NCBI RefSeq assembly: GCF_003334405.1
Contig: NZ_QOWM01000003.1
Origin: Escherichia coli
Lineage (GTDB): Bacteria > Pseudomonadota > Gammaproteobacteria > Enterobacterales > Enterobacteriaceae
Length of the DNA stretch: 64,000 nt
Strand: one strand, 5' to 3'
The stretch's first letter is position 1. Every line of letters starts with the position of its first letter. Under the pieces are notes generated by a model that was not told the origin of the DNA, did not search any database, and saw nothing but the letters and a program-made list of their open reading frames with translations. This document shows, piece by piece, positions 54,075 through 54,237 of the stretch. The position numbers and the translations under genes are program-made.

Positions 54075-54219
54075 TACAAGTCTCAGAAATTTGTTGCTTC
54101 TACGGCAGGACTGCCGGGAAGTGATGCGCATCACGATAAACCAATCGCTGCTGATTTCAAGTGCGAGGTGTGTCACACCTCGCCGGGTGGTTAGCATGAT
54201 AACAAAAAAATAAGCTAAT

Positions 54220-54237
54220 GCACTAGTTCTCTAGTAC
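54220..54237 (-). promoter_or_regulatory. TrpR operator of aroH
   Basis: Minus-strand sequence GTACTAGAGAACTAGTGC (ACTAG inverted repeats) about 150 nt upstream of the aroH start; matches my memory of the aroH operator; overlaps the ppsR stop codon. Confidence 0.7.

Follow-up and report, generated by a model that had tools for sequence, protein, structure and literature searches.

A TrpR Operator, Two Promoters, and Predicted CRP Sites between ppsR and aroH of Escherichia coli

The ppsR–aroH Locus

The region described here lies between ppsR and aroH, the gene for the Trp-sensitive DAHP synthase, in the window, that is, the whole 64,000-nt stretch of E. coli DNA that was analyzed (contig NZ_QOWM01000003.1 of assembly GCF_003334405.1). 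The open reading frame list and the annotation place both genes on the minus strand, with ppsR, whose stop codon is at 54233..54231, in tandem upstream of aroH; the convergent orientation given in a first-pass annotation of this sequence is thereby corrected. A 501-base query around the site is present in 5424 of 5426 complete E. coli genomes, in which it is annotated as ppsR–aroH, and the intergenic DNA of the window is identical to that of K-12 MG1655 (NC_000913.3 position = 1842509 − window coordinate). For comparison with other bacteria, 80 aroH loci were used, with one genome per species. Enterobacterales retain the ppsR–aroH tandem throughout, and Vibrionales and Aeromonadales do not have it. 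The features of the locus are as follows.

54231..55064, minus strand: ppsR (ydiA) coding sequence, 277 aa, with the end ...ATG TAC TAG (open reading frame list and RefSeq annotation of identical E. coli DNA)
54220..54237 (minus-strand reading 54237..54220), no strand assigned: TrpR operator GTACTAGAGAACTAGTGC (15/18 match to the symmetric trp-operator sequence)
54196..54204, minus strand: putative extended −10 element of promoter P1, TGtTATCAT (from sequence)
54163..54183, no strand assigned: GC-rich perfect palindrome GCGAGGTGTG-a-CACACCTCGC, 21 nt, 10+10 (inverted repeat), containing CRP site 2
54162–54177, read on the minus strand: predicted CRP site 2, TGTGACACACCTCGCA, within the GC-rich palindrome (ChIP-seq table and matrix)
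54133..54160, minus strand: promoter P2, with −35 TTGAAA at 54160..54155, a 16-bp spacer, and −10 TATCGT at 54138..54133 (consensus scan)
54120..54135, read on the minus strand: predicted CRP site 1, CGTGATGCGCATCACT, containing GTGATGCGCATCAC (54121–54134), here palindrome 1 (ChIP-seq table and matrix)
54125 (NC_000913.2 position 1786408), minus strand: aroH transcription start, an A (two independent genome-wide data sets)
54097..54121, minus strand: 5′-proximal stem-loop CUUC.CGGCA....UGCCG..GAAG, +5 to +29 of the P2 mRNA (RNA fold)
53028..54084, minus strand: aroH, with Shine–Dalgarno-like GAGA at 54084..54081, ATG at 54074..54072, and a coding sequence of 348 aa (open reading frame list and annotation)

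The GAGA and ATG of aroH are both kept in the alignment of orthologous regions. The longer open reading frame of 389 aa at 53028..54197 consists of the 348-aa aroH and its leader read in frame, just as the first-pass annotation had recognized, and it owes its existence to an in-frame ATG at 54197..54195, inside the P1 −10 region. A 389-aa form of AroH was considered and rejected: this ATG is upstream of both transcription start sites, and intergenic lengths differ between species by non-multiples of three. In E. coli ER1709 (NZ_CP030240.1, locus 2827–3872), aroH is annotated as a frameshifted pseudogene with a regulatory region identical to that of the window; the aroH of the window is intact, unlike the ER1709 copy.

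TrpR Operator and the Upstream Promoter P1

The TrpR operator is a near-palindromic 18-bp site of the GTACTAG-N4-CTAGTAC type with two CTAG cores, and it is the sole match with up to three mismatches to the symmetric trp-operator sequence in the 64 kb, in which 0.01 such matches are expected by chance. Its left half-site is formed by the last codon and the TAG stop of ppsR (TAC-TAG), and the overlap of GTACTAGAGAACTAGTGC with the end of ppsR, already pointed out in the first-pass annotation, is thus confirmed. The overlap can be attributed to the tight spacing of ppsR and aroH. Binding of Trp-bound TrpR and repression of aroH in vivo are established and have reportedly been described by Grove and Gunsalus in 1987, by Kumamoto in the same year, and by Klig in 1988. 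In the classical view, the aroH operator covers the −35 region of the upstream promoter, and the position found here agrees with this.

The right half-site lies 17–18 bp upstream of the extended −10 element TGtTATCAT, as judged from the sequence, and this spacing assigns a weak putative −35 element, TAGTGC, to approximately 54220–54225, inside the right half-site. A TATCAT, TATGAT, or TATTAT hexamer is kept 17–18 bp after the operator in related genera. Transcription from P1 would then start near 54189–54192 and yield a leader of about 115–118 nt. The genome-wide start data of Kim et al. (2012) and Romero et al. (2014) contain no start near the TrpR operator.

The TrpR box occurs at the same place on the ppsR stop codon in about 20 Enterobacteriaceae species. 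Among the compared loci, its location on the ppsR stop is confined to Enterobacteriaceae and is displaced in a few genera, and the box is missing in Yersinia, Serratia, Rahnella, Erwinia, Pantoea, and Morganellaceae. This distribution agrees with the narrow range of TrpR control reported by Leyn et al. (2016), in which control of aroH was restricted to a few close relatives of E. coli. In a 2021 network analysis on curated E. coli regulatory data, TrpR is given as the only regulator of aroH.

Several side observations can be made at the end of ppsR. Insertions move the TrpR box off the ppsR stop in Enterobacter sp. ENT03 and in a metagenome-assembled genome, and in Hafnia and Edwardsiella the box is found as GTACTAGTAAnAAAGTAC about 70 nt upstream of site 1. 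The displacement in some genera indicates that overlap between the operator and the stop codon is not required. The stop codon of the E. coli ppsR is the rare TAG, and the CTAG core of the left half-site comes from it. In most other Enterobacteriaceae, ppsR ends in TAA and the half-site reads GTACTAA. The Met-Tyr/Phe at the C terminus of PpsR is retained even where the operator is not present. Read as RNA, the minus strand of 54196–54245 at the end of ppsR folds into an operator hairpin (−13.7 kcal/mol, z = −3.8) followed by the U-rich P1 spacer AGCUUAUUUUUUUGUU; a terminator scan marks this structure as resembling a terminator. Enterobacter does not retain the U-run, suggesting that the operator hairpin is at most a weak, lineage-specific terminator of ppsR.

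Promoter P2 and the Mapped Transcription Start

Two aroH promoters are reportedly the subject, to judge from its title, of a 1991 paper by Hudson, Rellos, and Davidson. The database promoter names aroHp1 and aroHp2 likewise place two aroH promoters on record, and P2 is probably the second of these two known promoters. It is the lone sigma-70-like match found by a consensus scan of 53900–54500, and the left arm of GTGATGCGCATCAC shares bases with its −10 hexamer.

The start assigned to P2 has been mapped in two genome-wide data sets, in both of which it is located 8 nt downstream of the P2 −10 hexamer. The supplement of Kim et al. (2012; PMC3415461), obtained with mid-log cells in glucose M9, contains only one start for aroH, at 1786408; it has 414 reads and leaves a 5′ UTR of 51 nt, and the sequence given upstream of this start ends in ...TTTATCGTGATGCGCA. 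The supplement of Romero et al. (2014; PMC4681348), obtained with LB-grown cells, lists the aroH site FWD_(II)-1786408, in which class II denotes a TAP-enriched end that is not the leading edge of transcription. This class fits a primary start combined with some transcription arriving from upstream. The available parts of the Cappable-seq and SMRT-Cappable-seq supplements hold no entry for the aroH locus.

The mapped 5′ UTR of 51 nt replaces the leader of about 150 nt in the first-pass annotation. Position 54125 falls within GTGATGCGCATCAC, and the GC-rich palindrome is upstream of it; the primary 5′ end in both data sets is therefore largely where that annotation had stated that a start would speak against its reading, namely downstream of the palindromes. 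Their placement in the aroH 5′ UTR still holds for transcripts from the upstream promoter and fails for those that begin at 54125.

Comparison with other Enterobacterales shows that P2 is far more widely conserved than P1. In an alignment of 44 Enterobacterales sequences, the key −35 and −10 bases of P2 are invariant or at least 90% conserved, and the start base at 54125 is invariant. Conservation of the stretch that begins at the P2 −35 and includes palindrome 1 and the leader extends out to Proteus.

The Two Palindromes as Probable CRP Sites

The two palindromes, GTGATGCGCATCAC at 54121–54134 and GCGAGGTGTG/CACACCTCGC at 54163–54183, are both perfect inverted repeats, as first described. Evidence on the protein that may bind them comes from the CRP ChIP-seq study of Haycocks et al. 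(2015; PMC4287617), whose Table 1 gives a high-confidence peak at aroH in ETEC H10407, together with the MEME-predicted sites AGTGATGCGCATCACG and TGCGAGGTGTGTCACA under this peak. On the plus strand, these two sites correspond to window positions 54120–54135 and 54162–54177, that is, to the two palindromes. The occupancy of aroH by CRP is thus reported for ETEC, not for K-12. In addition, the supplements of one K-12 Crp ChIP-exo paper do not mention aroH, and the searchable literature yielded no CRP-linked expression data for the gene.

A symmetric weight matrix was constructed from the other 105 sites of the Haycocks table, and all 16-mers in the 64-kb window were scored with it. Site 1 (14.8) and site 2 (13.0) rank first and second, with the next best 16-mer scoring 11.0 and the 105 training sites having a median of 12.9. 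In first-order Markov random sequences, 0.93 sites scoring at least 13 are expected per 64 kb, and two such sites within 100 bp were obtained in 1 of 200 random trials.

The centers of the two sites are 42 bp apart. Site 1, centered at 54127.5 or −2.5 from the P2 start, spans −10 to +6 and so takes in the start and part of the −10 hexamer, a position that fits repression by occlusion. Site 2 is located between P1 and P2 with its center at 54169.5. Relative to the P2 start this center is at −44.5, and relative to the putative P1 start it is at about +21; site 2 fits no standard class. Two activating arrangements were rejected. Class II activation by site 2 does not fit, as its center is 31.5 bp from the first −10 base, compared to about 29.5 bp for a −41.5 site; an alternative promoter that would place site 1 at −41.5 has no −10 hexamer and would leave a leader of about 8 nt.

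Conservation of Palindrome 1

Palindrome 1 is conserved in a way expected for a dimeric DNA-binding protein. In the 44-sequence alignment, the GTGAT/ATCAC arms are invariant or at least 90% conserved and the central four bases vary freely. In about 40 of the 50 Enterobacterales species, site 1 reaches a score of 13–18 at a nearly constant distance from the ATG (−53.5 ± 2). No CRP-like site is found upstream of aroH in Vibrio, Photobacterium, and Aeromonas. Across 43–44 Enterobacterales sequences, none of the five pairs of palindrome 1 is changed on both sides, with two pairs never varying, and the palindrome folds weakly as RNA (−3.9 kcal/mol, z = −1.35). Arms devoid of covariation combined with a weak fold form the pattern of a sequence-specific DNA site rather than that of an RNA helix.

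Part of this conservation could come from the −10 hexamer, start site, and leader that overlap site 1. It might even be argued that palindrome 1 is conserved merely through its overlap with the P2 core promoter, the start, and the first leader bases, and that CRP binding there is non-functional. The left arm does share G-T with the −10 hexamer, and the right arm corresponds to +1 to +5 of the mRNA and abuts a conserved leader stem-loop. Many CRP sites detected by ChIP have no known effect. Furthermore, a CRP–aroH link is not listed in the 2021 network analysis on curated E. coli data. However, GTGAT-N4-ATCAC with a free center is characteristic of a site bound by a dimer and not of a −10 hexamer and start region, and site 1 scores 16–18 in most species, above three quarters of verified sites. 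Moreover, Pluralibacter, Escherichia sp. ESNIH1, and Enterobacter sp. ENT03 have a second full copy of the palindrome, GTGATGYRCATCAC, 48 bp upstream of site 1, where there is no promoter element to explain it. In light of these observations, conservation through promoter overlap has little chance of being the whole explanation.

A different dimeric factor, either a protein of the CRP/FNR family or a regulator of the aromatic pathway, might instead recognize GTGAT-N4-ATCAC. Such a factor could account for a site 1 that is more conserved than the usual degeneracy of CRP sites would suggest and for the symmetric GTAAT..ATTAC variant in Photorhabdus. We regard it as highly improbable, given that the aroH locus was reported by ChIP performed for CRP and that, by eye, the site does not fit the consensus of FNR (TTGAT-N4-ATCAA), TyrR (TGTAAA-N6-TTTACA), or TrpR. 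CRP thus remains the preferred candidate for site 1.

Some individual lineages differ at this position. Both Photorhabdus loci have GTAATTTCAATTAC at palindrome 1, with symmetric G-to-A and C-to-T changes in the two arms; the resulting GTAAT..ATTAC keeps the pairing and should weaken recognition by CRP, and this change, found in a single lineage, is the only hint of covariation in palindrome 1. In Citrobacter youngae, about 130 nt upstream of aroH, the ppsR–aroH spacer is 30 bp shorter and is devoid of the GC-rich palindrome and of the P2 −35. The TrpR box and the −10 hexamer of P1 are retained there, as is CRP site 1, and the P1 start would be only about 35 nt upstream of this site. Six Photobacterium loci have TTTGGTTTATT about 70 nt upstream of aroH, with no CRP-like site after it; this sequence resembles the spacer and −10 segment of the Enterobacterales P2, TTGGTTTAT.

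The GC-Rich Palindrome and RNA Structures

The GC-rich palindrome behaves differently from palindrome 1 when it is read as RNA, with a folding energy of −15.6 kcal/mol and z = −4.1. The two strong leader hairpins of the first-pass annotation are accordingly reduced to one, as strength can be attributed to the GC-rich hairpin and not to GTGATGCGCATCAC. The dyad of site 2 at 54169.5 is 3.5 bp from the center of the palindrome at 54173, and because of this offset CRP binding does not account for the perfect 10+10 palindrome.

This leaves room for the view first taken of the locus, in which the palindromes are RNA hairpins in the long P1 leader or in read-through transcripts of ppsR, with the GC-rich stem either stabilizing the P1 mRNA from a 5′-proximal position or blocking 3′-exonucleases and thereby setting the end of the ppsR mRNA. 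The stability of the GC-rich hairpin and a symmetry that exceeds the needs of a CRP site and is centered off its dyad are in favor of this view. The 46-nt segment around the palindrome is also found with 100% identity in 5257 of the 5423 E. coli genomes, and an unrelated GC-rich hairpin, CGGGGC..GCCCCG, occupies the same spot, just upstream of the P2 −35, in the Enterobacter cloacae complex and Lelliottia. On the other hand, the GC-rich palindrome is present in E. coli only among the sampled species; E. albertii and most other genera lack it, and it cannot be aligned outside E. coli. As a putative stabilizer it would be far from the 5′ end, since the hairpin (about +8 to +28) would begin 7–9 nt from the predicted end of the P1 mRNA. 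Palindrome 1, besides being weak and lacking covariation, is split by the mapped start. The available part of the Term-seq supplement of Adams (2021) has no sense-strand 3′ end for ppsR or aroH. Taken together, RNA hairpins appear to be an unlikely explanation of the palindromes, for which protein-binding DNA sites remain the preferred reading.

Two further assignments were rejected. Neither palindrome is reported by the terminator scan, and a terminator or attenuator is not compatible with the lack of a U-tract, as the sequence after the GC-rich hairpin is ACUUGAAAUCAG and that after palindrome 1 is UUCCCGG. The GC-rich palindrome is not a dispersed repeat either, being single-copy in E. coli genomes. 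A search of Rfam with 53800–54500 gave no match at E values up to 10, which also counts against RNA hairpins. With no compensatory pairs in palindrome 1 and no Rfam match, the palindromes do not constitute a conserved structured leader RNA. Both coincide with predicted CRP sites under the ChIP-seq peak, and the initial description of them as leader RNA hairpins is not upheld.

The mapped 51-nt leader contains a third inverted repeat, CGGCAG/CTGCCG at 54103–54116, which the first-pass annotation did not include. It belongs to the 5′-proximal stem-loop, in which three of the five inner pairs are changed on both sides in the alignment, and 41 of the 44 orthologous leaders are predicted to form a similar stem-loop. 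Compensatory examples are found in E. albertii (UGGCA/UGCCA) and Proteus (GGGUA/UACCC).

Proposed Control of aroH and Its Implications

Collectively, we propose that the region is a composite control element of aroH, in which a TrpR-repressed promoter P1 and a second promoter P2 are combined with palindromes that act as DNA sites for cAMP-CRP rather than as leader RNA hairpins; we give this reading a probability of roughly 70%. Since the poor −35 of P1 is inside the TrpR operator, Trp-bound TrpR would block RNA polymerase at this promoter. P2 (TTGAAA-16-TATCGT) supplies the transcription mapped in glucose minimal medium and LB, with its 51-nt leader from 54125. Binding of cAMP-CRP to site 1 would occlude P2 and might thus cause repression at high cAMP, the sign and size of any such effect being putative, and site 2 would be bound 42 bp upstream of site 1, between P1 and P2.

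Published work already covers the TrpR operator, the presence of two aroH promoters, and the ChIP-seq peak of CRP. The present analysis adds a correction to the annotation, in which the palindromes become protein-binding DNA sites around the second promoter instead of leader RNA hairpins. A broader suggestion, which we would rate at somewhat below even odds, is that the CRP site over the P2 start, and not the TrpR operator, is ancestral and has the widest conservation among the control elements of aroH in Enterobacterales, so that cAMP-CRP tunes the PEP-consuming, Trp-sensitive DAHP synthase to carbon status from Escherichia to Proteus. The 2021 network analysis does not give this link, and a functional study of it was not found in the searchable literature. 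Such a coupling is plausible because the neighboring ppsA–ppsR genes make PEP. If CRP modulates aroH, the entry of the aromatic pathway would receive an input from carbon status, and the conservation of site 1 across Enterobacterales makes the question worth pursuing.

Comparison with Known Systems

The TrpR operators of the E. coli trp regulon (trpEDCBA, trpR, aroH, mtr, and aroL) have the same 18-bp dyad with CTAG cores as the site described here. This site is the aroH operator itself, positioned over the putative −35 of a TrpR-repressed promoter, and there is no difference in kind. Dual-promoter biosynthetic genes have in common with aroH a repressor-controlled promoter and a second promoter downstream of the operator. 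The start at 54125 fits the second aroH promoter, with which it is probably identical.

Compared to mRNAs with stabilizing 5′-proximal stem-loops of the ompA type, the P2 leader likewise begins with a conserved stem-loop (+5 to +29). This stem-loop is neither of the two palindromes singled out in the first-pass annotation, and its stabilizing role is putative.

The closest likeness for the palindromes is found in CRP sites that repress by overlapping a core promoter. Like them, site 1 has a core of the TGTGA-N6-TCACA type that spans −10 to +6, and CRP occupancy of the aroH locus in vivo has been reported in ETEC. The aroH arrangement differs from such sites in its second site at −44.5, which belongs to neither class I nor class II, and in a spacing between sites that is not conserved, with 48 bp in other genera against 42 bp in E. 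coli; the CRP-dependent effect on aroH is putative.
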